64,000 nt of DNA, taken from an uncultured delta proteobacterium. Lineage in GTDB: Bacteria > Desulfobacterota > Desulfobacteria > Desulfobacterales > UBA2156. Below are positions 10,557 to 45,955 of this stretch, piece after piece. The notes beneath the pieces were generated by a model. It saw only the letters and a list, made by a program, of their open reading frames with translations, was not told where the DNA came from and did no database searches. Position 1 is the first letter of the stretch. Each line of letters begins with the position of its first letter. The DNA lies in NCBI GenBank assembly GCA_963736855.1, contig CAVTQK010000017.1:32885-96884 (forward strand), in the 5' to 3' direction. The translations under genes and the position numbers were made by a program.

Positions 10557-11801
10557 ATGCCTGGAAAAGAAGGAAATAGCGACAAGCTCTTTTGCTCTTT
10601 TTGCGGTAAAAATCAGAAAGAGGTGAAAAAGCTGATCGCCGGCCCGGCCGTTTACATTTGCGATGAATGCATCCGGCTGTGCAGCGAAATCATCGATGAA
10701 GAAACCGAAAAAGACGTCACGGAAACCAAGCGACACCTTTCACCAAAAGAGATCAAGGAGATGCTCGACGACTATGTCATCGAGCAGGAGTACGCCAAGA
10801 AAATCCTCTCCGTAGCGGTTTACAACCATTACAAGCGGATCGAATCGGGGGTCCATACCGATGACGTGGAACTGCAGAAAAGCAATATCCTTTTGATCGG
10901 GCCTACCGGATGTGGAAAGACCCTGCTGGCCCAGACCCTGGCCCGGTTTCTTAATGTCCCTTTCACTATCGCGGATGCCACCAGCCTCACGGAAGCCGGC
11001 TACGTCGGAGAGGATGTGGAAAACATCATCCTGTCACTCCTACAGAATGCCGATTATGACGTCGAAAAGGCCAAGCGGGGCATCGTGTACATTGATGAAA
11101 TCGACAAGATCGCCCGAAAATCGGATAACCCTTCGATCACACGGGACGTATCGGGGGAGGGGGTTCAGCAGGCTCTCCTCAAGATCATCGAAGGGACCAT
11201 GGCCTCCGTGCCGCCCAAGGGCGGGAGGAAACATCCACAGCAGGACTTCATCAAAGTGGATACCACCGATATCCTGTTCATCTGTGGTGGAACCTTCACC
11301 GGGCTCGAGGAAATCATCCAGCGCCGAATGGGTTCCAAGCTCATGGGGTTCGGTGCAAAGATCGTGTCCAAGGAGGAAAAACGCATCGGCGACATCCTGA
11401 GGATGGTTCAGCCCGAAGACCTCATCAAGTATGGGATGATTCCCGAATTCCTGGGAAGGCTTCCCGTCGTCGCCACACTGGATGAGCTAGGCCAAGCATC
11501 CCTGATTCGAATCCTCAAGGAGCCCAAAAACGCCCTCATCAAGCAGTTTGAAAAGCTTTTCGACCTGGAAGGAGTGAACCTGCGTTTTACCGACAGCGCC
11601 CTTTCGGCTTTGGCGAAAGAAGCGATGAAACGTAAATCCGGCGCCAGAGGGCTTCGGGCCATCATTGAAGGCTGCTTGCTGGATATCATGTATGAGCTGC
11701 CTTCCATCCAAAACGTCAGAGAGTGTGTGGTCAGCGAGGATGTCGTACTAAATCACGAAGACCCCATCATCCTCTTCGAACAGGAAAAGATCAAGGCCTG
11801 A
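10557..11801 (+). CDS. clpX: ATP-dependent Clp protease ATP-binding subunit ClpX
   Basis: Zn finger CSFCGK...[30 protein letters not shown]. Confidence 0.97.
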
Positions 11802-11842
11802 AAGATTCAAACCGGATCAATTTATCTATAATCATTAAACGG

Positions 11843-11996
11843 GATGGCAAAGTAAAAACTTCATATGCAAGGCGTTCAAATCTTAAGAAATGAGGCGTGC
11901 TGACCGGTACGCCGCCATAACTTGTCTGCGTGCTGAATGCACAGGCAGGCGAAGGAAGCAGCGCAACGCAGCGGATGAACTTTCTACGAGGCCATC
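11843..11996. repeat. MITE-like intergenic repeat, copy 1
   Basis: Imperfect terminal inverted repeats GATGGCAAAGTAAAAA / TTTCTACGAGGCCATC. Shares ordered blocks (GATGGCAAAGTAAA, CAAGGCG, ATGAGGCGT, GTACG, AGCGCAACGCAG, TACGA) with 58241-58386. Confidence 0.7.
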
Positions 11997-12013
11997 GAAT
12001 ATGAGCAATAAAA

Positions 12014-14452
12014 ATGGTGACATTACCTAAAATTTTCCAAAGTGATCGGCAACCGGAACCCGTCCGGATGCTTCCCCTTCTCCCTTTGAGGGATATCGTT
12101 GTGTTCCCCAGTATGGTTGCCCCGCTTTTTGTAGGCCGGGACAAATCGGTCAATGCCTTGGCCGAGGCCATGAACAGCGATAAAAGCCTCTTTCTGGCCA
12201 CTCAGAAGAGGGCCAACATCGACAACCCCACCGAAAGAGACCTCAACACCATCGGATCTGTGGGCACGGTCCTTCAGCTCCTCCGGCTTCCGGACGGCAC
12301 AGTGAAGGCTCTGGTGGAAGGAAAGAGCCGGGCACGAATCATCCGGTTCGTTGCCAATGAAGGCTTTTTCAAGGTGGAATACGAATTGATCCCGGACGCA
12401 GGCCTCTCGGATTTTGAAGGAGAGGCATTACGACGGGCCATTGTCCAGAGTTTCGATGAGTATGCCAAGCTCAACAAAAATATCTCCAAAGAGATGATCC
12501 AGAACGTCTCCACCATTGCCAGCCTTTCCCAGCTTGCCGATATGGTGGCAGCGCAATTCGCATTCAAGCTGGAAGACAAGCAGAAACTCCTGGAGGCCGA
12601 AGATTTGGAACAGCGGTTGACGCTGCTGCTGCGATTCGTCCGGACCGAGATCGACATCTTTAAGATGGATCAGCGGATCAAGGGCCGGATCAAGGAGCAG
12701 ATGGAGAAAGTTCAAAAGAACTTCTATCTCAACGAGCAGATGCGGGCCATCAAAAAGGAGATGGGGGCGGAAGAGGACCCAAGCGAAGAGCTTGCCGAGC
12801 TGGAAAAGCGGATCAAGCGCAAACGCATGTCCAGAGAAGCATCGGGAAAGGTTCGTCAGGAGTTCAAGAAACTCAGGATGATGACGCCCATGTCCGCTGA
12901 GGCAACGGTGGTCCGGGGTTACATCGAGTGGCTCATCGGTCTCCCCTGGTTCGATAAAACCGCTGTTCGTCATGACATCAAGGAAGCGGAGAAGATCCTC
13001 AACGAAGACCACTACGGTCTTGAAAAACCCAAGGAGCGGATCTTGGAATACCTTGCCGTCCAATCCCTGGTCAAAAAAATCAAGGGGCCGATATTGTGTT
13101 TCGTGGGACCGCCGGGCGTCGGTAAGACCTCTTTGGCCAAATCCATCTCCAGGGCTACGGGAAGGAAATTCGTGAGGCTTTCCTTGGGCGGTGTCCGGGA
13201 CGAGGCCGAGATTCGGGGCCATCGCCGCACTTACATCGGCGCCATGCCGGGAAAGATTATCCAGTCGATCAGGAAAATCGGCGTGAACAACCCCGTCTTC
13301 TGTCTGGATGAAGTGGACAAGATGAGCATGGATTTTCGCGGGGATCCGTCGGCAGCACTTTTGGAAGTCCTGGATCCGGAGCAGAACTTCAGCTTCAACG
13401 ATCACTATCTGGATGTGGACTATGATCTTACGGACATCCTCTTTATCACCACGGCCAACACGCTCCCGGATATCCCCCTGCCGCTCCAGGACCGGATGGA
13501 GATCATAAGGCTTCCCGGATACACCGAGTACGAAAAACTGCACATCGCCATGGGGTTTTTAATCCCCAAACAGGTTGTGGCTAACGGGTTGGAAGGCAGG
13601 AAAATCAGTTTTTCCAAACAGGCCATCTCAATGATCATCAACCGGTATACCCGGGAAGCCGGTGTCCGGAACTTGGAAAGGGAAATTGCCTCCATCTGCC
13701 GAAAGATCGCCCGGGAGGTCATGCAGAACAAAAAGAAAGAGAACATCCACGTTTCGGCCAGTTCAGTACAGAAATACCTGGGACCCCCGAGGTTCAGGGA
13801 CAGCCAGATCGAACCGGAAGATCAGGTCGGTATGGTGACCGGCCTGGCGTGGACCCAGGTGGGCGGTGAACTGTTGTGTGTGGAGACATTGACCATGCCG
13901 GGAAAAGGGGAGCTCATCATCACCGGGAAACTGGGAGATGTGATGAAGGAATCCGCCCAGGCCGCCGTAAGCTATGTGCGATCCCGGGCCGAATGCCTCT
14001 TGATCGATCCCAAGTTTTATAGAAAGCTGGATCTTCACATCCACATTCCGGAAGGAGCGATCCCTAAGGACGGTCCTTCGGCAGGGATTGCCATGTGCAC
14101 CTCCATCGTTTCCGCACTCACCCGCCGGCCTATCCGCAGGGATGTGGCCATGACCGGCGAGATTACCCTTCGCGGACGGATTCTGCCCATCGGCGGGCTG
14201 AAGGAAAAGATCCTGGCCGCCCATCGGGGAGGCATTAAAAAGGTCATCATCCCCAAGGAAAATGAAAAGGACTTGAGGGATATCCCCAAGACCATTTCCA
14301 AGCAGATCGACATCGTCATGGCGGAGCACATGGATGAAGTGCTGCCCCAGGCGATGATCCTGAGAGTGGGAGAGTCTTGTTTCAGAGAAAACGACATCTC
14401 CTTCCAGATGGCGCCGGAGGAAAAAACAGAAGGACGGCCATCTTTAATTTAA
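12014..14452 (+). CDS. lon: Lon protease
   Basis: [11 protein letters not shown]-domain, [16 protein letters not shown], and catalytic PKDGPSAG / IGGLKEK. Confidence 0.97.
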
Positions 14453-14473
14453 TCCACTGCGCTGGAATATCTG

Positions 14474-14502
14474 TTGACAAAAGGCCGTTGCGCTGTTACT
14501 AA
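14474..14502 (+). promoter_or_regulatory. sigma70 promoter of the tRNA-Val/Asp cluster
   Basis: TTGACA-N17-TACTAA, 12 nt before tRNA-Val. Confidence 0.7.
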
Positions 14503-14514
14503 TCAGCGGCTTTA

Positions 14515-14589
14515 GGGCGGGTAGCTCAGCGGGAGAGCATCGGCCTTACAAGCCGGGGGTCACAGGTTCAAACCCTGTTCCGCCTACCA
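14515..14589 (+). tRNA. tRNA-Val(TAC)
   Basis: GGGCGGGTAGCTCAG, TCGGC-CTTACAA-GCCGG arm, GGTTCAAACC, TCCGCCTACCA end. Confidence 0.95.
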
Positions 14590-14632
14590 AAAAAATAAAT
14601 GAGCCGCTTTATGGCTCACCCAATCGCTTCGC

Positions 14633-14705
14633 CGGGGCGTAGTTCAGTTTGGTTAGAACGTCCCGCCTAAATGGCGGGAAAGTCGATTGGCCGAGCCCAT
14701 CGGTC
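14633..14705 (+). pseudogene. tRNA-Asp-derived pseudo-tRNA (5' half) with substituted anticodon arm
   Basis: GGGGCGTAGTTCAGTTTGGTTAGAACG is identical to the tRNA-Asp 5' end. TCCCGCC-TAAAT-GGCGGGA then replaces the anticodon arm, followed by AAGTCG and a degenerate T-arm. Confidence 0.75.
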
Positions 14706-14735
14706 ATTGACTTGTTCTTTGTTTGTTTTCATCGC

Positions 14736-14813
14736 GGGGGCGTAGTTCAGTTTGGTTAGAACGCCGGCCTGTCACGCCGGAAGTCGAGGGTTCGAACCCC
14801 TTCGTCCCCGCCA
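14736..14813 (+). tRNA. tRNA-Asp(GTC)
   Basis: Complete cloverleaf with CCGGC-CTGTCAC-GCCGG, G discriminator and CCA. Confidence 0.97.
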
Positions 14814-14821
14814 GTAAAATC

Positions 14822-14854
14822 AAGGACTTAGAGAGTTTATCTAAGTCCTTTTTT
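14822..14854 (+). terminator. intrinsic terminator after tRNA-Asp
   Basis: AAGGACTTAGA / TCTAAGTCCTT 11-bp stem followed by a T run. Confidence 0.75.
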
Positions 14855-15090
14855 ATTTCATTAAAACAAACTGATTATTCGAAAGTATTATATCATCATG
14901 ATGCCAAGCGATGTCCGCGCATGGATATGCAAAGCGAACTCAATAAATTATTCGAAAACCGGCTTCCTGATCCCAATCTAAAATCTTCTATAAAAATTAT
15001 GAAAAGATTGACGTTAACTGATAGATAGGCTACTGTTATTAGTACCCAAAATTGAGGCGGCATTAAGAATCCACATATAGGAAAAGGGGA

Positions 15091-15330
15091 ATGTCCCCGG
15101 TTGCTTTAAGGTCTGGACCCTATAGGTTTTACTTTGTCAGTCATGATCTGCACGAACCACCGCATGTCCATATTGACCGAGATGCTTTTTCAGCCAAATT
15201 CTGGCTCAATCCTGTGGCTCTGGCGTATAATCTTGGATTTCCTGCAAAAGAACTGAGGAAGGTCGAAGCGATCACCGTTGAAAATCAAAAAGAGTTATTG
15301 GAGAAATGGAATGAATACTTTGGAACCTAA
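15091..15330 (+). CDS. DUF4160-family small protein (putative type II TA component)
   Basis: YRFYFVSHDLHEPPHVHID...AKFWL is typical of DUF4160; overlaps a DUF2442 gene. Confidence 0.8.
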   Translation: MSPVALRSGPYRFYFVSHDLHEPPHVHIDRDAFSAKFWLNPVALAYNLGFPAKELRKVEAITVENQKELLEKWNEYFGT

Positions 15331-15583
15331 GGCAGGAGAACGAATAAAGAATGTTTCTTTCACAGATGATACTATCATTGTAGATCTTTTCGACGGACGA
15401 ACTATAACGGTTCCCCTGACATGGTATCCCCGTCTGCTCCATGCAACGCCGGAACAGCTCAAGAATTGGAAAATAGCTGGAGCGGGATACGGAATACATT
15501 GGCCGGAGATTGATGAAGATCTCAGCACCCAAGGTCTTTTACAGGGTGCTCCAGCTCCCCGCACGGCTTCGAAAGCTGCATAA
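15311..15583 (+). CDS. DUF2442-family protein (partner of DUF4160)
   Basis: DGRTITVPLTWYPRLLHAT and GIHWPEIDEDLS motifs. Confidence 0.85.
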   Translation: MNTLEPKAGERIKNVSFTDDTIIVDLFDGRTITVPLTWYPRLLHATPEQLKNWKIAGAGYGIHWPEIDEDLSTQGLLQGAPAPRTASKAA

Positions 15584-15819
15584 ATTTTATAAAGTACTTG
15601 CCTAATGCCACCTATCTCAATTCGGCATCTCTAACCATCATTCCGGCATTAAAACTGATATAGTTCATCACTGCGTAAAAAACTGCGTGAATTTTGATAG
15701 ACGAATTCGAGCAAATTCTCATTTCTATTTACGAATTCACTCAAATTCTCACGCAGTAACAGTTTGATATCTTTATAATATATTGAATTCATTGAAAATA
15801 AAAAATCGGGACATGGAAT

Positions 15820-15864
15820 CTGTCACGCCGGAAGTCGAGGGTTCGAACCCCTTCGTCCCCGCCA
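15820..15864 (+). repeat. attR-like duplication of the tRNA-Asp 3' half
   Basis: 45-bp exact copy of 14769-14813, starting at the anticodon loop CTGTCAC. Confidence 0.9.
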
Positions 15865-15914
15865 CTGTTTTCATGGCCTGCCATCTGTAAAGATGTGCCA
15901 GGCCTTTTTTCTTT

Positions 15915-16168
15915 ATGGCATACTGCGTTTACATAATCCAAAGCCAGGTTGATGGAGGTTTCTATGTCGGCTCAACCCGTGACATTGATGACCGGCTTGA
16001 GCGTCACAACACAGGGAGGAGTCGTTACACCAGGGGAAGCGTGCATGGAAATTGGTTTATAAGGAAGACTGTCCGGATCGATCGAGTGCAATAAAACGTG
16101 AGTTAGAGATCAAAAACAAAAAGAAACGAACGGTTATCGAAGCGCTGATTAGAACGTCCCGCCCCTAA
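15915..16168 (+). CDS. small stand-alone GIY-YIG nuclease (one apparent 1-nt deletion in GGGG at 16033-16036)
   Basis: Absent from the ORF track. MAYCVYIIQS..DGGFYVGST.DIDDRLERHN.GRSRYTRG, then after the shift KRAWKLVYKE...SAIKRELEIK...IRTSRP*. This is the YhbQ/UPF0213-like GIY-YIG pattern. Confidence 0.85.
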
Positions 16169-16208
16169 GGCGGGAAGGTCGCGAGTTCGAACCCCTTCGT
16201 CCCCGCCA
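16149..16208 (+). pseudogene. tRNA-Asp-derived 3' repeat with substituted anticodon arm
   Basis: TTAGAACG + TCCCGCC-CCTAA-GGCGGGA + AGGTCG + GTTCGAACCCCTTCGTCCCCGCCA; the last 24 nt are identical to the tRNA-Asp 3' end. Confidence 0.8.
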
Positions 16209-16577
16209 AGTAAATTCAAGGGGTTACGGCAATCAACCGTAGCCCTTTCTTATTTGTTCCCAGCAGTATTCCCAGCAAGCAACCCGAATTTTAGCCTTTT
16301 TGACATTTCAGGCCCAGTATCGACATCACCCGGATTGAGAACCCAACAGATCAGGACTTTGCCCGGAAAGAGAAATATTCAAGAGCAATGAAATTATTTA
16401 TATTGAGACTTTACTGCGAATTCCGCATTCAGCCGCATAAAAGGGGATAGATGGAAAGGTTGAACTGCATTTTCCATATTAACTTGTCTGTTATGAGCAT
16501 ATATGTAATATTTGACATGCTATAAGGACGATATCGAGTAATTTATTCCAGATATTGATAATGTTCGGCAAACATGC

Positions 16578-16607
16578 TTGTTTCGTATTGTTGGGTTTCA
16601 GTATAAT
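16578..16607 (+). promoter_or_regulatory. putative promoter of the TA pair
   Basis: TTGTTT-N18-TATAAT, then RBS GGAGAGG before ATG 16646. Confidence 0.5.
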
Positions 16608-16645
16608 GGAAGCAAGATGAATGAACCAACATAGGAGAGGTCAAC

Positions 16646-16868
16646 ATGGCAATGACCGCACAAGAAATCTTCACAGAAACCGTACGAAACCTGCCACCCA
16701 GAGAACGGCTTCGTCTGGCAGCACTCATTTTACAGGATCTGGCACAATCAGATGTCGGCGGTTGTGAACCGAAGTGACACTTGGAGCGAACAAGACCAGA
16801 GAGATCTGACTGCCGTTTCATTGAAGTATGCGGCTGGTCTCTACCCAGAGGAGCAGGAACTTGTTTAA
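16646..16868 (+). CDS. putative antitoxin (frameshifted near 16760)
   Basis: MAMTAQEIFTETVRNLPPRERLRLAALILQDL continues in another frame to ...WSEQDQRDL...EEQELV*; overlaps the toxin start. Confidence 0.6.
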
Positions 16869-17224
16869 TCCGGGAGATGTGGTGGCGATTGACTTTCCTG
16901 GTGTGACTGGCGTCAAACGCCGGCCTGCTGTTGTAGTCTCCTCCGCAGTCTATCATGCCTCACGCCCCGATGTGGTTGTCTGCCTCATTACAAGCCAAAC
17001 CATTCCATGTGGTCCTGACGGATTACATATTGCAGGATTGGGGTAAGGCAGGTTTACGAGTCCCATCGGTCTTTCGGTGTTTTTTCGCTACGCTCCCTCC
17101 CGCTACCCATCCTGTGCTCGTCGGCCATTTGTCAGACCGAGACTGGCGTGGAGTATGTGAGTGCATAAAGATCGCCCTGGCCCCCTTATCTACCTCAGAA
17201 CGTTCGACAACATCACCGTCGTAA
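16861..17224 (+). CDS. PemK/MazF-family toxin (frameshifted near 17005)
   Basis: PGDVVAIDFPGVTGVKRRPAVVVS...ITSQ, then DYILQDWGKAGLRVPSVFR...GHLSDRDW. Confidence 0.8.
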
Positions 17225-17250
17225 TCGACCATGTTCGCTGAAGTGGGATT

Positions 17251-17313
17251 GCCGAACGAATAAGGATAGATCGTGAGAGCGAAGCGAACCACGATCTTAT
17301 CCTGTAGTTGGAC
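17251..17313 (-). other. attC-like site 1
   Basis: On the minus strand: GTCCAAC, arm GATAAGATCGTG / CACGATCTATC with one extra base on the first arm, then GTTCGGC. The asymmetry favours minus orientation. Confidence 0.7.
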
Positions 17314-17470
17314 AAGCCCGGCGGAATTCAGGGAGGTATCCTTATAAAGGAAAATATCTTTTGTTGAATGGGAGGTGGTTTTAACCCGAACTGGGAGCAA
17401 GACAATTTTCAGGGCAAGCGAGATCAATAAGCCTATCAGAGGGCTTATTAAACGGTCTTTATGTCATAGA
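17307..17470 (+). pseudogene. remnant head of a second recombinase/IS91-like element
   Basis: GTTGGAC-AAGCC-CGGCGGAA resembles the reverse complement of the intact terminus at 19557-19583. It has the same RBS block AGGGAGGTAT and a degraded QGK..AY.RA reading like the integrase N-terminus. Confidence 0.5.
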
Positions 17471-17527
17471 ATTTTTCTTAACCTCCTATGCTTATGTTTA
17501 CTTCAGGTCATTGCCGATTTAGACATG

Positions 17528-18582
17528 CTATCCTGGTGAGCGTATCGGCGGGCTGATACCCAGCACCCGCATAGGCGCATGACACAAGGGGCACATAAAT
17601 ACCGGTCTGGGACGTGAGCAGGCTTGAATCATGACCTGCAAAACCATTTGAACCAGTTTCAGCAGCTTTTTGGCATTGCCATGTAGAAAGCCATAGTCTC
17701 TGAGCCGACGAAAGCCCTTGGGCAAAACATGTTGCAGAACGAGCCAAAGGAAGTCTTCACCTTTGACGGTACGGTAGCGGGTTTTGCCGGTACGGCTTTC
17801 GACATATTTAAACGTGACATTGCCATTTTGATTGGAGACGATATTGCTTTCACCGATGACGCCTCGGTATAGGTATCGCGATAAGTATTTCAAAGCGGAG
17901 AGACCTTTTCCGGCGCGAGTGCAGTCGACCACCCATTTTCTGGGCACTGAATCGGGCAAAGCGAGACCGGCTTGGTTCAAAGCCGCAAGAAAGCGGGCGC
18001 GAAACACCTTGGCCAGGGCGAATTCATTGAACAGGTACTTGCTTTTTTTCTTTTTCCATTGTTTTTTGGCCTTATCCACGCCGCCGCCCGGCACCACGAC
18101 ATGGATATGCGGGTGATAATCCAGGCGACGGTTATGGGTATGCAGTACTGCGGTCATGCCGATATTGGCGCCGAGGTTTTTGGGATTCAGGCCGAAGTCC
18201 TTCAGCGTGCTGGAAGCGCACGCAAAAAGGAGATTATAAGCGAGGGTTTGGTGGTTCCATGCCAGGAATCTGAGCTCATAGGGAAACGTAAAGGTTGCCA
18301 TGAAGTACTCAACCGGCAAAAGCTTGGCCTGTTGCCGGTCCAGCCAGAGTGAGGTTTCATGGTTCTGGCATTGTGGGCAGTTGCGATGCCCGCAGGAACG
18401 GGGACGCCATTCGGCATGGCCGCAGTCAGTGCATTGAACGAGCAACTGGCCGGCGTCGGGTGTTCGGCATCTGTCGGATCGCATCGATGGCGTGCAGATG
18501 ACCGGGTAAAAGCCGGGAGCCGTATTTGCTCCCGAAAGGCATCGTGATATTGATCAAGGATAGAGGCAAGTTGCATGATCAT
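17528..18582 (-). CDS. IS91-family (HUH/Y2) transposase, two apparent indels near 18480-18530
   Basis: Zn-binding [19 protein letters not shown] motif [13 protein letters not shown], and YLSRYLYR. Confidence 0.9.
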
Positions 18583-19483
18583 ATCCTCCTTAAATCGACG
18601 TGGAGGGTATTGATCAGCCCATTAATGGTATCAAATGCATTCTGTTTGGCGATGTCGGTTAAATGGGCGTAGCGAGCTGTGGTGGTGGGGCTGCTATGTC
18701 CGAGAATCGCCTGGATATGACGAAGGCTTAAGCCCTTTTCCAGCAGATGGGTTGCAAAGGCATGCCTCAGGGAGTGGATCGAGACTTTTTTTTAATGCCG
18801 CACTGTTCTACCACGGCTTTCATGGCGGCCTGGGTGCCGCCGCGATCCATATGGGTGGTGGCACTGCGGATGCGCTCGGGGGACCCGACGGCATTGGGGA
18901 ATAACCAGCAGGGGTTGCGATGTTTGCGCCATAGAGTACGTAGTGCGTGACAGGTCAGATCCGGCAATGGGACGAAACGATCCTTGTGCCCCTTGCCGCG
19001 CCGGATATGAACCAGCTTGCGCTGACCGTCGATATCGCCCACTTGCAGGGACAGCGTCTCTGCGAGCCGCAAGCCCATGGAATAGGTTGCTATCAGGAAA
19101 ACCCGGTAGCGAAGCTTACGTGTCGCACCGATTATTTGTTCAACTTCGGTGACGGTGAGAATGTCGGGCAGCGAACGCACTTTGGGGGCTTTGATGATAT
19201 TAAGCCACTGCCAATCGTGTTTTAGGACATGTTTCCAGAAAAACTGCAGACCATTACGATCAATTTTAACGGTGCTCCAGGAGTGAGATTTCACCAGATC
19301 GGAAAAATATTGTTCCCGCTGTTTCAGGGTCAATTTGTCGGGGCAACAATCAAAATATTCACTGATTCGACGCACGGCGCGCGCATAGGCCTCAATGGTC
19401 TTTTGACTTTTACCCTGGAGTTTGAGAGAACGCAGATGACGTTGATAAAGTTCATTAAACCGGTTCGCTTCAGCTTTTTTCAT
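18579..19483 (-). CDS. tyrosine recombinase; catalytic C-terminus in the -1 frame after an A8 run
   Basis: YSMGLRLAE and GKGHKDR in frame 0. After AAAAAAAAG (18793-18785) the -1 frame reads [24 protein letters not shown]; its stop overlaps the transposase ATG. Confidence 0.88.
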
Positions 19484-19576
19484 GGTATACCTCCCTTTGT
19501 TTTAATGATGCCCGAAATTGGGCAACACTGGGAGTTATACACGGTTATGAGGTTTTTTCCGCCGCGTAGCGGCTTC

Positions 19577-19680
19577 GTCCAACAAGCCAATGAAGCTGAC
19601 AAACAACCACGCGGCAAGTTCGGTGGGATTATGAAAGTTGGTTCAGCGTGGTTGCTTGCAGCTTATCGGCGTCGTTATGT
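19577..19680 (+). other. attC site 2
   Basis: R'' GTCCAAC; left arm GCCAATGAAGCTGACAAACAACCACGC pairs with the right arm leaving two extra bases on the left arm; R' GTTATGT. Confidence 0.85.
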
Positions 19681-19717
19681 GGTTTCTCCCATGGCACTGA
19701 ACAAGGGAGAGTAGTAG

Positions 19718-20272
19718 ATGATGGAATGGTTAGCTAAGAACTGGTTGCCCATTCTGGCATTGCTCGTCGCCTTTGTGGGAGGGTGGCCTGGTATTTTGAA
19801 GATTGCCGAACATTTCCGACCTATCTCCCTGACCGGCTCCATTAAATTTTTTGCTCTTACTACGAGCGCCGACCCCCCCGAAGAAGGTATCCTTCTGGCA
19901 CTTACGCTTCTCAACGAAGGCAATAAGAACCTTGTATGGAGAAAAATTGAGGGAACATTAGAGGCTGGAGGGAAAAAGGTTGCTCTCATCCCAAAGATGA
20001 TTCCCAAAAGTCTATTACTAAACGGAGACATATCACCCCAACCAGATTTTTTGAATCAGCAGACAATTCCGCCAGGAACTCCGGTTAATGCCTACCTTCT
20101 CCTGACTGGTAACCTTGGTTCTTTTAGTGCTCTCAATCCGATTGCGAGTGGCAACTTGGGTCTTCGATTCCAAACAGAATCAGGGAGGGACGCAGATGTA
20201 AAACTCTCGATTCAGACGCATGCTCTCCAAAAAGGTGAGACCTACCCATCACACGGAATCGAATTCAAATAG
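19718..20272 (+). CDS. hypothetical integron-cassette protein with N-terminal TM helix
   Basis: 184-aa ORF between attC2 and attC3 with RBS AGGGAG; no recognisable family. Confidence 0.7.
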   Translation: MMEWLAKNWLPILALLVAFVGGWPGILKIAEHFRPISLTGSIKFFALTTSADPPEEGILLALTLLNEGNKNLVWRKIEGTLEAGGKKVALIPKMIPKSLLLNGDISPQPDFLNQQTIPPGTPVNAYLLLTGNLGSFSALNPIASGNLGLRFQTESGRDADVKLSIQTHALQKGETYPSHGIEFK

Positions 20273-20305
20273 GTAGACAAATGCAAATCATATGGGTCGG
20301 CTTCC

Positions 20306-20382
20306 ACATAACCATCGCATCAACTCGGACTGGCAATCACGGCTACGCTTCATTGCCTGCCGGTTATGCGTAATCGATGGCA
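20306..20382 (+). other. attC-like site 3 (degenerate R')
   Basis: R'' ACATAAC complements the cassette-start GTTATGT. Arms CGCATCAACTCGGACTGGCAAT / ATTGCCTGCCGGTTATGCG. R' reads GAT instead of GTT. Confidence 0.65.
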
Positions 20383-20407
20383 AACGAAAATCACTCAGGG
20401 ATAACGC

Positions 20408-21962
20408 ATGAATCATAACGGAAACAACATTGAATCCCGCCTGTGGGCGGCGGCGGATGAGCTGCGGGCCAATTCCAAGCTGAAGTCGTCGGAATACTCG
20501 GTCCCGGTGCTGGGGCTGGTGTTTCTGCGTTATGCCGACCACAAGTTCCAGGCCGCGGCAAAGGAACTGGTGGGCGCAGGCGGCGGCCGGCGCAAAATCG
20601 GCCCGGCGGATTATCAGGCCAAAGGCGTGCTCTACCTGCCCGACAGCGGCCCGTTTTTCGGCACTGATCCAGATGCCCGAGGGGGCCAACATCGGCGCGG
20701 CCATCAATGACGCCATGCGGGCCATCGAGGCGGACAACCCCGATCTCAAGGACGTGCTGCCCAAGACCTACAACCGTTTTGAGAACGCCCTGCTCAAGGA
20801 ATTGCTCAAGACCATGAATTCCGTGCCCATGGACATCGAGGGGGACGCCTTCGGCAAGATTTATGAATATTTCCTGGGCAACTTCGCACGCGCCGAAGGC
20901 CAGAAGGGCGGCGAGTTTTTCACACCCACCGCCATCGTTCAGCTCATCGTCGGCATCATCGAACCGTTTCATGGCCGCATCTTCGACCCGGCCTGCGGCT
21001 CCGGCGGCATGTTTGTGCAGAGCGCCCGGTTTGTGACCGAACACCAGAAGAACCCCGGCGCCGAGTTGAGCGTTTACGGTCAGGAGAAGGTGGCTGAAAC
21101 CGTGCGCCTCGGCAAGATGAACCTGGCCGTGCATGGCCTTGCAGGCGACATCCGCCAGGGCAACGCCTACTACGAAGACCTGCACCGCTCCGTGGGCAAG
21201 TTTGATTTTGTCATGGCCAATCCGCCCTTTAACGTGGACCGGGTGGACAAGGACCGACTCAAGGAAGACCCGCGCTTCCCCTTTGGCCTGCCCCGCACGG
21301 ACAACGCCAACTACCTCTGGATTCAGATTTTTTACAGCGCCCTTTCCGACACCGGCCGATCCGGGTTTGTCATGGCCAATTCTGCTTCCGACGCGCGCGG
21401 TTCGGAACTGGACATCCGCCGGCAGCTTATCGAAGCCCGGGCCGTGGATGTGATGGTGGCGGTCGGGTCCAACTTTTTCTACACGGTAACACTGCCCTGC
21501 ACCCTGTGGTTTTTCGACCGGGGCAAGCGCAAGACCAAACGCGCCGACCAGGTGCTTTTCATTGACGCCCGTCATCTTTACCGCCAGATCGACCGCGCCC
21601 ACCGGGACTGGACCCCGGCCCAGATCGAGTTTCTGGCCAACATCGCCCGGCTCTACCGGGGCGAGGCGCCGGAGAACCTGCACGAGAGCGCCGACCTGCT
21701 GGCCGAACATTTCGGCAAAAAGCCCAAGTACGCCGACGTGGCCGGCCTGTGCAAGGTGGCGACCATCTCCGAGATCGAAGCCCAGGGCTGGAGCCTCAAC
21801 CCCGGCCGCTATGTGGGCGTGGCCGCCCGCGAAGAGGAGGACTTTGACTTCAAGGAACGGCTGGAGGAGCAGAACGAGGAACTGGAAACCCTCAATGCCG
21901 AGGCCCGGGAACTGGAAGCGCGGATTGCCGAGAATGTGGTCAAGTTGTTGGAGGGGGAGTGA
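20408..21962 (+). CDS. hsdM: type I R-M methyltransferase (frameshift near 20640)
   Basis: [28 protein letters not shown] and ANPPFN motifs. Confidence 0.92.
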
Positions 21963-22640
21963 TGACAAACGAAAAGCGTAATCTGAAGAAAACAAAACCT
22001 GTACCATGCGTGGCTGTCGCCTCCGCTGCTGGATGACCTGCGCCGGATGATCGAGGAAACCCGGCAAGGTGTTGCCGTTATGGTCAACGCCGGATTGACC
22101 ATACTTTACTGGCGCGTCGGCAAACGAATCAACGAGGAAATTCTCAAAGGCGAGCGGGCTGACTATGGCAAAGAGATTCTTGCGACAGTGTCGCAAGAAT
22201 TGGTAAACGATTATGGAAAGGGCTTCAGCTACTCAGCTTTAACCAGAATGCTCAAATTCAGTGAGGTTTTTCCGGACCCTCAAATTGTTGCGACACTGTC
22301 GCAAACATTGAGCTGGTCGCATTTCTGTGAACTTTTTCCGCTGGAAAAGCCGCTCCAGCGTGATTTCTATGCCGAAATGTGCCGTATCGAACGGTGGAGC
22401 GTCCGCACCCTGCGGCAGAAGATCGGCTCCATGCTCTACGAGCGCACCGCTCTGTCGAAAAAGCCGGAAGAATTGGCGCGAATCGAACTGTTGGAATTGG
22501 GCAAATCCGGCATCCATGTAGCCGAATACCTCACCGCCCTGCCGCCCCGCGAGCTGCTTGCCGAAAAGCTGCGACGGTCGATAGAGTTGGCGCGGGCAAG
22601 CTTGGAAGGCCGGGAGAAGAACGATAATGAGAAGATTGGC
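21962..22640 (+). pseudogene. DUF1016/YhcG-family gene with large internal deletion
   Basis: N-terminal LSWSHF and WSVRTLRQKIGSMLYERTALS joined directly to the C-terminal LELGKSGIHVAEYLT; the nuclease core is missing. Confidence 0.75.
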
Positions 22641-22726
22641 AAACGCCTGGGAGCTCCGCACTGGGTTGCGGCGGCTTCAGGAAAAGCGGATTCGCGGAGA
22701 ATGTGGTGAAGTTGTTGGAGGGGGAA

Positions 22727-23994
22727 TGATATCGAATCGCGGAAATTAGAAACATGCTATTCGGGGAAGACAGCAATTACTTTTGGAATCAGAGCAATTC
22801 GGCAGCACTATAGTCAGAGAATACCGATAATGGCCCAGTGCACGAGATTGTTCATACGGCTCGACGGTAGATCAAATCGGTTGTCGTGCAATGCTGAATC
22901 TCAATTGCCCGAGTGCCCGTGTATTGTAATTGGCCGCAACGGTACAGTCTATAGGCAAGTCTTTGTTCAGGGCAGACGGCAGACGACTAATTGGTCACAC
23001 AGATACGACTACAGTGTTGTTGGTGGAAAAGTACCTCCAGGCGATTTATCCCGTGTTTTCGTACCTATTATTTGCTCTTCAAACTATGGAGCTTGTGAAC
23101 CAATTTCTCATGGCGCGGGCCACAAACTCCCACATTGAAATCAAGACATCATATAAACTATCTACGATTCGATCCCTCCCCCCTCCCCACCCAGCGCAAA
23201 ATCGCCGCCATTCTCTCGGCCTACGACGACCTGATCGAGAACAACCTGCGGCGGATCAGGATTCTGGAGGAGATGGCGCAGAACCTCTACCGCGAGTGGT
23301 TTGTCAAGTTCCGCTTCCCCGGCCACCAAAACGCCCGCTTTGTCGATTCGCCCCTGGGCCGGATTCCGGAGGGGTGGGAGGTGGACACTGTTGCGAAAGC
23401 ATTTGATATTTTGGGCGGTGGAACACCACTCAAAAGCCATTCCCGAATATTGGGATGAAGGAACTATCAACTGGTATTCGCCAACCGATCTCACCGCAAC
23501 GGGCATCTATGTTCATGGAACGTTCCAGCAATCAAATCAGTGAACTGGGTCTGAAAAAGAGTTCGGCACGCTTATTCCCACCGTTTTCCGTGATGATGAC
23601 CAGCCGGGCTACGCTCGGCGTGATTTCAATCAATACTACCGAGGCATGTACCAATCAGGGCTTTATAACCTGTATTCCGAACGAGCGTTTTCCGCTTTAT
23701 ACGCTCTACTACTGGCTCAAGGAGAATATAGAGTATTTTATAAGCCTTGGTACAGGTGCTACTTTCAAGGAGATCACCAAAGGCATATTCAAAACCATCG
23801 AACTTGTCGTTCCTGCACAGGGTATAGTTACTCTGTTTGAGGATACCATGAAGCAATTTGCCCTTCAGGTATTGAACCTGCAAAGAAAAAACACCACCCT
23901 CCGCCGCACCCGCGACCTTCTACTTCCCAGACTCATCTCCGGCGAGAAGGATGTGTCGGAACTGGACATCGCCGTTGCCGAGGAGGCAGCATGA
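22727..23994 (+). CDS. hsdS: type I R-M specificity subunit; TRD1 heavily frame-disrupted
   Basis: Conserved spacer [23 protein letters not shown]...LYREWFV, TRD2 GGGTP...NQGF...GATFKEI, and C-terminal [12 protein letters not shown]. Confidence 0.75.
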
Positions 23995-24958
23995 AAGCCA
24001 CTGATCTCGATATCCTGCTCCAGGAGGGCGAGGGCGTCATGCTGGAATATAAGGAAGGCCTTTCCGCTTCCTTTGCCCGCGAACCCCGGCGCTTCTTCAA
24101 TCAGGCCTATGTCACCTGCCTGCTCTTCAAGGGAACCAGCAAGGTGCATGTGCTGGATCGAAAGGACTTTGCCGGAGGCATTGTCGCCGATATCGAGGAC
24201 AGCCTGCGTTTCATCGAACGTAACACCCGCACCGCCTATCGAATCGAGAAACTTCAGCGCGAGGATATTCCGGAATATCCCATGTCGGCGCTGCGCGAGG
24301 CCATCACCAATGCCGTTATGCACCGCGACTGGTTCATCGAGGGCGCCAACGTGTTCGTTGAAATTTTCTCGGACCGCATCGAGGTTTCCAGTCCCGGCGG
24401 CCTGCCGAAGGGGATGCTGCTGAAAGACCTGGGCCATAAGAGCATCCGTCGCAACGCCCTGATCGCCGACCTGCTGCACCGCATCGCCTTTATCGAAAAG
24501 GCCGGCACGGGCATTCTGCGCATGCGCGACGGCGCCAGGGCGGAGGGGTATCCGGAACCCGAGTTTTCCGAGACCGGTTTTTTCAGCGTGGTGTTCCGGC
24601 CGATTCCCGCGGTAAGCGAACAGGATACCCAGCAAGTCGGGACCAAGTCGGGACCAAGTCGGGACCATGATGGGCCCATGATGAGGCCCATGATGAGGCC
24701 CATGATCCGCTGGGTGCTGTCAAATATCGAATTTTGACAAAATGTGCCGATGAACCACAAAGCACGCCCGATCTGTTGCACACACTGGGTTACAAAACAC
24801 GCACCGGCGGTTTTAAAGTGGCGATAACCGATCTTTTAATTTCAGGCTTTCTGGAAATGACTATTCCGGATAAGCCAAGAAGCAAAAAACAACGCTACCG
24901 CACCACCGCGGCCGGGCGCCGTGTTCTCGAAAACGTCGATAAGGATTCAGCATCATGA
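23991..24958 (+). pseudogene. AlbA_2/Schlafen plus RecG-C-like accessory gene, internally deleted and frameshifted in tandem repeats
   Basis: EGEGVMLEYKE start, ALREAITNAVMHRD, SPGGLP, RNALIADL. The C-terminal PDKPRSKKQRY module is in another frame (24734-24958). Confidence 0.7.
24633..24706 (+). repeat. intragenic tandem repeats
   Basis: (CAAGTCGGGAC)x3, then CATGATGGGCC, (CATGATGAGGCC)x2 and CATGAT. Confidence 0.9.
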
Positions 24959-43237: not shown

Positions 43238-45955
43238 ATGGCGGAAACACCCTGGCATGTGTTGGGACCGGATGCCGTCCTGAAGGAGTTGGAGACCGAT
43301 CTCCTCACGGGTCTCAGCGATAGAGAAGCTTCGACGCGCGTCGAGAAATTCGGATACAACGAACTGAAGCGGGAAGAACACACTTCATCGCTCGCTCTCT
43401 TTTTTAACCAGTTTAAAAACATCCTCATCATTATTCTGCTTGTGACGTCCATTCTCTCAATCCTGGTGGGGGAGGTTCTGGACGCCGTCCTCATTTTGGT
43501 CATCGTGATTTTTTGCGCCGTCCTGGGTTTCATTCAGGAGTATCGGGCAGAACGGGCATTGGAGGCCCTCAAGGGCATGCTTGCACCGACCATCACCGTC
43601 CTTCGCGAGAGCAGTGAAAGAGAAATCCCCTCCAAGGAACTCGTCCCGGGCGACATCATGATTCTTGAAGCGGGAGATAAAATTCCTGCCGATGCCAGGC
43701 TGGTTCAGGTCTATTCATTGAAATGTGACGAAGCTTCTCTGACAGGAGAGTCCATCCCTGTGGCGAAGCGTGTGGAAGGCGTAGCCCGAGAAGTACGCGT
43801 CGGTGACCGAAAGAATATAGTTTATGCGGGCACATCGGTAAGCTATGGCAGGGGCAGGGCGGTGGTGGTTGCCACAGGAATGACGACAGAGTTCGGAAAA
43901 ATCGCCGAGGAAGTCACAACCATCGAAGCGGAAAAAACGCCCTTGGAAAAAAGGACGGAGGAGATAGGCAAATGGCTTGGATTCATGGCGCTGGGAATTT
44001 GTGTTATTGTTGCGGGCGTCAGCGTGGCCAGAGAAGCGCTGGGGGGCAAGGTTGATCTGGGATTCATAGTCACCATCGTTATGTTTTCCATCGCCCTGGC
44101 GGTGGCGGCGGTTCCCGAAGCGCTGCCCGCCATCGTGACCGGCGCCCTGGCTATCGGCATGCATCAAATGGCCAAGAGAAATGCCCTCATCCGCAAAATG
44201 CCGGCCGTGGAAACCCTTGGATGCACAACGGTCATCTGCAGCGATAAGACCGGAACCCTTACCAAAGGGGAGATGACGGTCCGAAAGGTTTTTATGGACG
44301 GCAAAACCATAGAGGTCTCCGGAGCAGGATATTTGCCTGACGGAGAGTTCCGCATGGATGATTCCGCCGGCGTCGTCGAAAATAGGGATCTGCAACTCCT
44401 CCTTCTAGGGGGATTGCTATGCAACGATGCTTCATTGGAACAAAGGGAGGGAAGGTGGCTCATCAAGGGAGATCCTACGGAGGGCGCCCTGATTGTGGCT
44501 GCGGCCAAGGCTCGGATCGATCAGACTCAAGCCAGACTGGACCATCCCAGATTAGAGGAAATTCCTTTCAGCTCGGAAAGAAAGCGTATGACCACCATTC
44601 ATCGTATGAAGGACGGCAAAACAATCGCTTTCATTAAAGGCGCTTCGGAGCTGGTTTTGGAAAGGTGCACCCACGTGTTCTCAAACGGTCAGGTGAGGGA
44701 GCTCGAACGGGAAGAACGTGAACGGATTCTGAAGGCCAATACGCAGATGGCTCAGGAAGCATTGAGGGTTTTAGGATTTGCTTATCGGGAGCTTTCGCAC
44801 GCCAGAGGAGTCGGGGAAGAGGTGGAACAGGAACTCATTTTTACAGGTCTTATGGGAATGATGGATCCGCCTCGAGAAGAAGCCATCGAAGCCATTAAGG
44901 TCTGTAAGAACATCCATATCAAACCTGTCATGATAACGGGGGACCATAAACTCACCGCTGTGGCCATAGCCAGGGAAATCGGAATTTATCAAGAGGGGGA
45001 TAAAGTGATCACCGGCGACGAGCTGGAGAAAATGTCGGTGGACGACCTCGATGACTTCGTGGATCAGGTGACGGTTTACGCACGGGTCTCGCCGACGGAT
45101 AAGTTGAAGATCGTCAGGGCCTGGAAAAGAAAAGGGGAAGTGGTTGCCATGACTGGAGACGGCGTGAACGATGCGCCGGCCCTCAAGCATGCCGACATCG
45201 GCATTGCCATGGGGATCACCGGAACCGATGTGGCCAAAGAGGCCGCTGCTATGGTGCTTAGTGACGATAACTTTGCCACCATCGTCAGTGCCATTGAGCG
45301 CGGTCGGTGGATTTATGACAACATCAAGAAATACCTGACCTATCTTCTAAGGTGCAACATCACCGAGGTCATTGTCATCGGGGGGACGGTTCTGTTGATG
45401 GGGCCGGAATACCTGCCGTTGCTACCCGCAGCCATCCTGTATATTAATCTGGCAACAGACGGCCTCCCGGCTCTGGCTCTAGGCGTAGCCCCTCCGGATC
45501 CGGATATCATGCTGAGACCGCCGCGTGATCCCAGGGAAAGCATCTTCACCCGGGATGTGAAAGCGTTCATTGCCCTGGCACTTTTCATCGAGATCCCCTT
45601 CTTTTTTTATCTCTTCTTTCATGACCTTTCGGACATAACACATGCCAGAACGGAAATATTTTTCCTGTTCGTCATCGTTGAACTGGTGATCGCCGTAAAC
45701 TTTCGTTCCATGCTATACAGCGTCTTCAAGCTGCCCCCCCACAAGTGGTTGCTGGTGGCGATTTTCTGGGAAATTGTTCTTGTCGCCGTCCTGATACAGA
45801 TCGGCCCCGTAAGAGAAGCTTTCGGGATATTGAAGCCTGGTGTAAGAGATTTGGCAATCATTGCGGGCTTCAGTGGCGTGGTGTTTTTCTCCATGGAAGT
45901 CGTCAAAGCGATTTTGCGAAGGCGTATGCCGATGGTGAATAGGCCTAAAGTCTAA
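43238..45955 (+). CDS. cation-transporting P-type ATPase (type II, Ca2+-like)
   Basis: TGES, VPEALP, DKTGTLT, KGA, TGD and GDGVNDAPAL. Confidence 0.95.
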   Translation: MAETPWHVLGPDAVLKELETDLLTGLSDREASTRVEKFGYNELKREEHTSSLALFFNQFKNILIIILLVTSILSILVGEVLDAVLILVIVIFCAVLGFIQEYRAERALEALKGMLAPTITVLRESSEREIPSKELVPGDIMILEAGDKIPADARLVQVYSLKCDEASLTGESIPVAKRVEGVAREVRVGDRKNIVYAGTSVSYGRGRAVVVATGMTTEFGKIAEEVTTIEAEKTPLEKRTEEIGKWLGFMALGICVIVAGVSVAREALGGKVDLGFIVTIVMFSIALAVAAVPEALPAIVTGALAIGMHQMAKRNALIRKMPAVETLGCTTVICSDKTGTLTKGEMTVRKVFMDGKTIEVSGAGYLPDGEFRMDDSAGVVENRDLQLLLLGGLLCNDASLEQREGRWLIKGDPTEGALIVAAAKARIDQTQARLDHPRLEEIPFSSERKRMTTIHRMKDGKTIAFIKGASELVLERCTHVFSNGQVRELEREERERILKANTQMAQEALRVLGFAYRELSHARGVGEEVEQELIFTGLMGMMDPPREEAIEAIKVCKNIHIKPVMITGDHKLTAVAIAREIGIYQEGDKVITGDELEKMSVDDLDDFVDQVTVYARVSPTDKLKIVRAWKRKGEVVAMTGDGVNDAPALKHADIGIAMGITGTDVAKEAAAMVLSDDNFATIVSAIERGRWIYDNIKKYLTYLLRCNITEVIVIGGTVLLMGPEYLPLLPAAILYINLATDGLPALALGVAPPDPDIMLRPPRDPRESIFTRDVKAFIALALFIEIPFFFYLFFHDLSDITHARTEIFFLFVIVELVIAVNFRSMLYSVFKLPPHKWLLVAIFWEIVLVAVLIQIGPVREAFGILKPGVRDLAIIAGFSGVVFFSMEVVKAILRRRMPMVNRPKV

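Follow-up and report, generated by a model that had tools for sequence, protein, structure and literature searches.

Integrons are the main gene-capture platforms of Gram-negative bacteria, and to our knowledge only two kinds of parasite specialized on their attC sites have been recognized, namely, IS1111-attC elements and group IIC-attC introns. The former are insertion sequences of the IS110 family, reportedly described by Tetu and Holmes in 2008 as specialized on attC with a fixed position and orientation. IS91-type elements include a subgroup in ISfinder with two open reading frames (ORFs), to which ISShvi3, ISSod25, ISAzo26, ISWz1, ISMno23, and others belong. Group IIC-attC introns are inserted between a gene and its attC; they occupy the bottom strand and run against the direction of cassette transcription (PMC3001079). 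For IS91 elements, rolling-circle replication is thought to start at oriIS, downstream of the gene, and to stop at terIS, upstream of it; both ends are structured, and a GTTC/CTTG tetranucleotide stands beside oriIS (PMC5737581; PMC13393415). Here, we analyzed a stretch of 64,000 nucleotides from an uncultured delta proteobacterium of the Desulfobacterales (assembly GCA_963736855.1, contig CAVTQK010000017.1, positions 32,885 to 96,884), hereafter the window. Most probably, positions 17257-19582 on its minus strand hold a single copy of a widespread two-gene IS91-family insertion sequence, inserted at the AA|C of an attC R'' box and bounded by structured ends of its own (vertical bars mark junctions or cut positions throughout).

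The boundaries of the element were established from a sample of 80 related loci, fetched using its transposase, in which blastn homology to the window spanned 19583/19585 to 17251/17255 in every case. Since this homology always ran from 19583 to 17255-17257, the mobile unit (17257..19582, minus strand) measures 2,326 bp under a G|TT convention; three nucleotides, AAC/GTT, are found at both ends (17255-17257 and 19581-19583) and leave the boundary ambiguous by as much. End probes started at the G of GTTGGAC and stopped at ...CTTATTCG plus TT, and the junction pattern was constant, flank|GTTGRAC...CTTATTCG|TTRRRY, across ~50 left and ~70 right junctions. One of the loci (L014) was 92% identical over 2,336 nt, and the genome under study carries a single copy. 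The unit takes in two segments that a preliminary description of this DNA had read as an attC ("attC1", 17251-17313) and the decayed head of a second insertion (17314-17527), whereas the following attC ("attC2") lies outside it. Both segments proved to be the element's own conserved right end, contiguous in ~60 loci. The two independent insertions at attC/AAC proposed earlier thus reduce to one element, in which the left terminus recurs in inverted orientation as the subterminal repeat of the right end.

Both ends are structured and strongly conserved. The left, recombinase-side, terIS-like terminus (19557..19582, minus strand) reads on the plus strand as a GCCGC-GTA-GCGGC hairpin (19561-19573), TTC, and GTCCAA(C) at 19577-19583, and GTTGRACGAAGCCGC-loop-GCGGC is kept in all relatives down to 48% transposase identity, with a loop that varies. 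The right, oriIS-like end, formerly attC1 (17257..17318, minus strand), was delimited by conserved boundaries and stem covariation. On the plus strand, it begins with C17257, GAATAA, the stem GGATAGATCGTG (17264-17275), and a loop (17276-17289), and continues with the returning stem CACGATC[T]TATCC (17290-17302, one extra T), TGTA, GTTGGAC (17307-17313), and AAGCC (17314-17318). Conservation of the final 66 nt is 88-100% in all relatives; they consist of GGGCTY-GTCCAAC, a spacer of 4-5 nt, a 12-bp stem (one extra base), a loop, and TTATTCG. The same architecture, with compensatory stem changes, was also found in a gammaproteobacterial group at 60% identity, in 48%-identical copies on the Photobacterium plasmid pPHDD1 and an E. 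coli IncC plasmid, and in a ~35%-identical pair on contig C24 of the same genome. A noncoding tail (17319..17527, minus strand) separates the transposase stop from the subterminal repeat; its homology is contiguous in close relatives, and it bears no significant similarity to the real head. By analogy with IS91, we infer that the right-end hairpin corresponds to oriIS and the left-end hairpin to terIS.

The strings behind the two-insertion proposal are indeed present, with TTCCGCCGCGTAGCGGCTTCGTCCAAC at 19557-19583 and an imperfect inverted copy, GTTGGAC-AAGCC-CGGCGGAA, at 17307-17326, both on the plus strand. In relatives, however, only the GGCTY-GTYCAAC portion of the supposed second terminus is conserved, and the TTCCGCCG portion is not. 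A block resembling a ribosome-binding site (RBS) had been described as common to both termini; the match is exact over 10 nt (AGGGAGGTAT/ATACCTCCCT), but its two occurrences lie 17 and 81 nt from their respective "termini." Outside the ~20 nt at the terminus, 17307-17470 aligned with the element head no better than shuffled sequences did. When the reverse complement of 17307-17480 was compared with 19410-19583 under strict gap costs, the best match was the RBS-like block itself, and 42/500 shuffles scored as high; under lenient costs, the observed score was reached by 18/300 shuffles. The "decayed QGK..AY.RA" peptide claimed for this segment found no statistical support.

The two ends also fit each other. 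When the two ends of 25 distinct elements were fused, right to left, and the antisense strand (relative to the genes) was read, three helices emerged: the small left-end hairpin GCCGC/GCGGC; an R-box helix between the left-terminal GTCCAAC and the right subterminal GTTGGAC, extendable by GGCTT/AAGCC; and the 12-bp hairpin, whose 3' arm carries a bulged T. Across these 25 elements, 99% of cells pair, compared to 30-48% when the 3' partners are slid, and changes on both sides affect five pairs of the hairpin and a single pair between the ends, which switches from C-G to T-A in five sequences. The circle junction of the copy studied here folds at -29.2 kcal/mol. The joined fold runs 5'-RYYYAA|C, spacer, stem with a bulge in its 3' arm, and GTTRRRY-3', which is the polarity of the bottom strand of attC. 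The right end alone has the layout GTCCAAC-TACA-stem-loop-stem-TTATTC-G|TT over 61 nt with one bulged base, which is an R''-L''-L'-R' arrangement of boxes.

Two genes occupy the interior. The first encodes a tyrosine recombinase of the Xer/IntI clade (18579..19483, minus strand; 301 aa when read through a -1 shift at A_AAA_AAG, 18785-18793) with the Pfam domains Phage_int_SAM_4 and Phage_integrase. Its best NCBIfam matches (XerA, IntI, and XerD) all fall below cut-off. The enzyme is not an IntI, given that it scored 160 bits against TIGR02249 (cut-off, 265 bits) and that the IntI-specific insertion of ~30 aa is absent from its alignment with two IntI proteins of this genome. The -1 offset falls at the same place, in a run of eight A residues, in 59/73 copies, and a clade at ~50% identity is in frame. 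Because the offset is common to so many copies from many independent assemblies, it looks less like decay than like programmed -1 frameshifting or transcriptional slippage, which would give a truncated and a full-length recombinase. The recombinase stop and the transposase start overlap in ATGA, and the two genes are, by their sequence, translationally coupled, a pairing retained down to ~35% identity. The second gene (17528..18582, minus strand) encodes an IS91-family HUH-Y2 transposase with an N-terminal zinc-binding domain, Zn_Tnp_IS91 (PF14319), a Y2_Tnp domain (PF04986), visible HPHIH and YLSRY motifs, and a score of 389 bits against NCBIfam NF033538 (cut-off, 125). Two private 1-nt insertions near 18480-18550, found in no relative, split its N-terminus over three frames. 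Owing to these frameshifts, this copy is probably no longer autonomous, unless they are assembly errors. The element contains phage-integrase and IS91 domains only, with no DEDD transposase, ribozyme, or reverse transcriptase, and a search of 14000-24000 returned no Rfam intron match.

The family is large and widely distributed. Metagenomes hold at least 7,925 transposase clusters, and hosts include Desulfobacterota, Gammaproteobacteria, Chloroflexota, Bacteroidota, and others; homologues are called only "IS91 family transposase," with no ISfinder name. One metagenome-assembled genome (MAG) carries at least 19 copies, many of them at non-attC sites that have an extended consensus in common. 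In the genome under study, the ~35%-identical recombinase-transposase pair (C24:203440-205849, outside the window) adjoins a true intI (C24:200981-201931) and has an analogous right end, GGGCTT-CTTGAAC, hairpin, and CCTTATAG|GTT. A further IS91-like transposase gene lies in the same region, at C24:202149-203381.

In the window, the element split a genuine host attC. The site attC2 (19583..19680, plus strand) is the attC of a toxin-antitoxin cassette; its R'' box GCCGAA|C has been cut, and the GCCGAA is now found at 17251-17256, on the far side of the insertion. The reconstructed attC2 folds at -23.8 kcal/mol and aligns across the junction with an uninterrupted paralogous attC of the same genome (C19:~45747-45851). 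The element, on the minus strand, thus sits between the body of a PemK-type toxin-antitoxin cassette and its attC, inverted relative to the cassettes. In the 40 unique empty sites that could be reconstructed across the family, the target logo was cTknAAysnnTT|G|TTAGGY, the reverse complement of which, GCCTAA|C-AAnns-rTTnmAG, is the R''-L'' (1L-2L) half of attC. The right end is followed by GTT(A 25, G 9, C 6 of 40), with a single GTT shared, a pattern related to GTTC/CTTG but broader and longer.

We then asked how often targets are attC-like, using a constrained fold in which a junction passed if it lay below the 5th percentile of a control set, 600 GTT sites taken from these loci. By this measure, 19/43 unique left junctions were attC-like against ~2 expected (binomial, 4.8e-14), and 3 or 4 more were attC-like or hairpin-like by eye. 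The element also co-occurs with integrons, and a true intI is encoded in 15/16 host genomes. In all five intI-containing loci (L066, L091, L081, L026, and L052), intI shares the element's strand and is found on its right side, and three more (L030, L065, and L070) agree by coordinates, so that the element is inverted relative to the cassettes in 8/8 loci with intI (p=0.008). Read in the element's orientation, the flanking attC has its extra bases in the 3' arm in 9 cases versus 1. Enrichment, the fixed AA|C of R'', and the constant orientation together place the family in the functional class of attC-targeting elements, as had been suggested earlier for this pair of genes. In a fresh sample of ten contexts of an identical transposase, five of six unique left flanks were attC-like by eye, of which only one passed the fold threshold; neighboring genes were small toxin-antitoxin and restriction-modification genes on the opposite strand. 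All six copies inspected in a gammaproteobacterial MAG adjoin attC.

The earlier suggestion that folded attC is the target holds for the 19 junctions that fold as attC, but about as many of the 43 targets are free of a hairpin. The ~19 hairpin-free targets keep a TTGTT core, R at +3, A at -8, and T at -11. Structure is therefore not required for targeting. A local hairpin at these sites was considered and rejected, as the minimum free energy of the 45 nt upstream showed no difference from controls (p=0.53). Sequence comparison thus strongly supports a family rule whereby insertion occurs at the RYYYAA|C of the R''/inverse-core (1L) box plus the L'' half, in inverted orientation, or else at non-attC sites that keep TTGTTRG.

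Resident elements can themselves be targets. In the Methyloprofundus chromosome (L065, L070, and L080), the element stands directly behind the right-end hairpin of a different related element, producing hetero-tandem arrays; the G|TT of a resident element is therefore a preferred target. An apparent sign of read-through mobilization of left-flank DNA in Methyloprofundus was rejected, since the 465 nt in question are the tail of a tandem related element. The shared left flanks inspected were tandem elements and gave no evidence of the cassette mobilization without IntI that had been suggested earlier. In one Desulfobacterales MAG, two full elements stand head to tail (L044:672-5316) with one GTT in common between them. 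The same MAG holds the right-end hairpin as extra 46-48-nt tandem partial copies devoid of an R''-like box (L040:5319-5410 and L053:5316-5363).

The clearest insertion, in a textbook attC, is that of a family member in a class 1 integron. On the E. coli IncC plasmid RCS41_p (L110; NZ_LT985243.1, record 11205-13177), a 48%-identical relative separates aadA1 from its attC, in the order intI1, aac(6')-Ib3, aadA2, cmlA1, aadA1, element, and qacEdelta1-sul1. Its left flank is the bottom strand of the aadA1 attC (...GGCTTGAACGAATT|GTTGAAC...) and its right flank reads |GTTAGACATTAT. The insertion splits GTCTAA|C of the inverse core of the aadA1 attC and is inverted, with intI1 on the element's strand. 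The plasmid annotation describes this element only as a "site-specific integrase" and an "IS91 family transposase."

Compared with the IS91 family (IS91, IS801, IS1294, and the ISCR relatives), the element has the same HUH-Y2 transposase with a zinc-binding N-terminus, two dissimilar structured ends with an ori-like hairpin ~200 nt downstream of the gene, apparently no target duplication, and a GTTN tetranucleotide beside the ori end. Unlike those elements, it carries a coupled tyrosine recombinase, its target extends to an attC R''-L'' half-site (RYYYAA|C-N5-GTTCRRG), and its left terminus is complementary to a subterminal right repeat, such that the joined ends mimic attC. An end search on an IS91 copy from a Klebsiella plasmid gave matches dominated by Tn3 context. 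The two-ORF IS91 subgroup has the same upstream phage-integrase-family ORF and IS91 transposase, a likeness of gene layout; a full-text literature search found no target rule, orientation rule, or attC-mimic ends for that subgroup, and no description of an attC target rule for IS91-type elements at large. Group IIC-attC introns (e.g., S.ma.I2) insert in broadly the same position and point the same way, and their motif has a TTGTT-type core like that of the element's targets, but they are retroelements with a ribozyme and a reverse transcriptase, whereas the element is a DNA transposon unrelated to them in sequence and enzymes. IS1111-attC elements show the same specialization on attC with fixed position and orientation, but use a DEDD transposase and another position in attC, and have neither a recombinase nor an attC-like end. 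Integron cassettes resemble the element in being bounded by G|TT and in having an imperfect hairpin of ~60 nt with R''-like and R'-like boxes and one bulged base, and IntI belongs to the same clade as its recombinase. The element differs from cassettes in that it lies at R'' and inverted, not at R' in array orientation (8/8 intI loci, the aadA1 attC, and the window), and in that its hairpin is conserved in sequence across phyla.

These features suggest a pathway in which the transposase would roll out a single-stranded circle that the recombinase would integrate, which, for a single IS91-family element at attC, seems to us about as probable as its opposite. The transposase would nick the bottom strand at the AA|C beside the right-end hairpin (oriIS), and the bottom strand, antisense to the genes, would be rolled out to the left end (terIS; small hairpin, TTC, and GTCCAA|C), releasing a single-stranded circle. 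In the observed geometry, the antisense strand carries AA|C at a distance of 6 nt on the 5' side of the right-end hairpin, and the left end consists of a hairpin followed by TTC-GTCCAA|C. The ends of the circle would then pair (GTCCAAC/GTTGGAC and GGCTT/AAGCC) around the bulged-T hairpin into a look-alike of an attC bottom strand, with the predicted circular junction GTCCAAC|GAATAAGG, or, written at greater length, ...GCGGCTTCGTCCAAC|GAATAAGGATAG... Finally, the recombinase would join the circle to a target RYYYAA|C through an exchange of single strands like that carried out by IntI. Participation of the recombinase is suggested because the ends are complementary and covary, the target logo has two boxes, and the coupled recombinase is kept down to ~35% identity. 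In its full form, with an HUH circle, an attC-mimic junction, and an IntI-related recombinase that integrates at R'' on the attC top strand, this two-enzyme pathway acting on single strands throughout is a tentative and somewhat doubtful proposal.

Several observations weigh against it. The inter-end covariation depends on one varying pair and could reflect a single protein that binds both repeats; the placing of AA|C, 6 nt 5' of a hairpin in ori and target alike, suits an IS91 mechanism by transposase alone just as well; the recombinase lacks the IntI insertion that reads extrahelical bases; and the ~19/43 targets without a hairpin belong here as well. The attC test is a folding heuristic and not the IntegronFinder model, and many loci come from metagenome bins, in which assembly across a repeat can yield chimeric flanks. 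A search with the joined flanks found no empty-site allele in 11 genomes of the same family, and a search of public sequencing runs for reads across the frameshifts or across circle or empty junctions found no run with more than 15% of the words of the locus. In metagenome contigs L100-L109, the same element was flanked by identical sequence on the left but different sequence on the right, or vice versa. These mixed flanks are probably assembly chimeras across the repeat, and single metagenomic junction pairs need caution.

The most serious rival, and a distinct possibility, is that the HUH-Y2 transposase alone cleaves and transfers the strands, choosing sites similar to its own oriIS (an AA|C that precedes a hairpin by ~6 nt on the 5' side, or just YAAC). 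The top strands of attC would then be the most abundant look-alikes, and the recombinase would be an accessory for tandem resolution, regulation, or target capture. Known IS91 elements have the GTTC/CTTG tetranucleotide beside oriIS and make no target duplication (PMC5737581), to which GTT(A/C/G) at the right end would correspond here, and the hairpin-free targets, the tandem insertions beside resident right ends, and the recombinase without the IntI insertion all sit well with such a mechanism. It leaves unexplained, however, the complementarity and covariation of the left terminus with the right subterminal repeat and the retention of the coupled recombinase down to ~35% identity, and the logo spans two inverted core-like boxes (RYYYAAC-N5-GTTCRRG), typical of a simple site of a tyrosine recombinase.

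The converse, that the element's own recombinase excises and integrates it by hairpin-by-hairpin recombination while the IS91 transposase is cargo or vestigial, is unlikely. The attC-like circle junction and the membership of the recombinase in the Xer/IntI clade would suit it, but the transposase is intact and coupled in nearly all relatives, with an identical protein in many contexts, non-attC copies have no upstream partner hairpin for excision, and the two ends look like terIS (left hairpin plus CAAC) and oriIS (right hairpin). We find it more improbable still that the pair is an ordinary gene cassette with its own attC, moved passively by the host IntI. The element has cassette-like bounds (TTGGAC... 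to ...G|TT), an R''-like box complementary to its first 6 nt, and IntI in nearly all hosts, but it is inverted in every intI locus and in the aadA1 case, lies at R'' and not at the R' crossover used by IntI, reaches at least 19 copies in one MAG at sites of which many are not attC and have a consensus of their own, and has end sequences conserved across phyla, unlike host-specific attC sites. Scarcely credible, lastly, is an intact element plus a decayed second copy, each independently inserted at attC with the same terminus fused to R'' twice, for which the inverted similarity of the terminal ~20 nt and the 10-nt RBS-like block would speak, since ~60 relatives in unrelated settings carry 17257-17527 as an unbroken part of the element, the attC1 hairpin travels with the element across phyla, and the alignment past 20 nt is at chance level.

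The surroundings of the element in the window form a small cassette array. The cassette body cut off from its attC (16564..17256, plus strand) encodes a PemK/MazF-like toxin at 16828-17046 (Pfam PemK_toxin) and starts with TTCGGC, the complement of the R'' GCCGAA. No convincing attC was found upstream of 16563, where the best fold reached -3.8 kcal/mol. This toxin-antitoxin cassette opens with G|TTCGGC (16563-16569), the exact complement of its R'' GCCGAAC, and this short run of attC sites may have a secondary site, and not an attI or attC, at its start. The next host attC ("attC3," 20306..20369, plus strand, with bounds set by reading the sequence) has an R'' of ACATAAC and an R' of GTTATGC and ends a cassette with an ORF at 19718-20272; that cassette starts with TTATGT, the complement of ACATAA in attC3 R'', and each cassette of the array opens with the complement of its own R'' box. 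Because attC3 follows the ORF, the array is plus-oriented. On the plus strand, it is the 5' arm of attC2 that holds the extra bases. A fold scan of the window recovered attC2 and part of attC3 (20318-20369, from a different AAC box) and missed the element's hairpin, and for that reason it was not used as a detector. The genome encodes four true integron integrases, none of them inside the window. After attC3, type I restriction-modification genes (20408-23994) are broken across frames, with hsdM at 20408-20710 versus 20532-21962 and hsdS likewise at 23135-23458 versus 23455-23994; these are either decaying genes or assembly indel errors.

Taken together, the element is a variant IS91-family member, with an attC target rule for which our literature search found no precedent and, as read from its sequence, with ends that mimic attC. 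The IS91-plus-recombinase subgroup appears to be a third kind of attC-specialized parasite, and with RCS41_p the family has already reached a clinical class 1 integron. Its insertions cut a cassette from its recombination site and place a foreign hairpin behind the gene. They can also mislead integron annotation based on attC, as happened when the element's hairpin was first taken for an attC. The finding gives the unexplained recombinase of two-ORF IS91 elements a testable role and connects HUH rolling-circle transposition with attC-type hairpin recombination, both of which work on single-stranded DNA. If the two-enzyme pathway is true, rolling-circle synthesis that overran the left end could take the neighboring attC and the downstream cassettes with it, no IntI being needed, and these elements would be autonomous "self-mobilizing cassettes," possibly related to the ancestor from which integrons took their attC/IntI chemistry.

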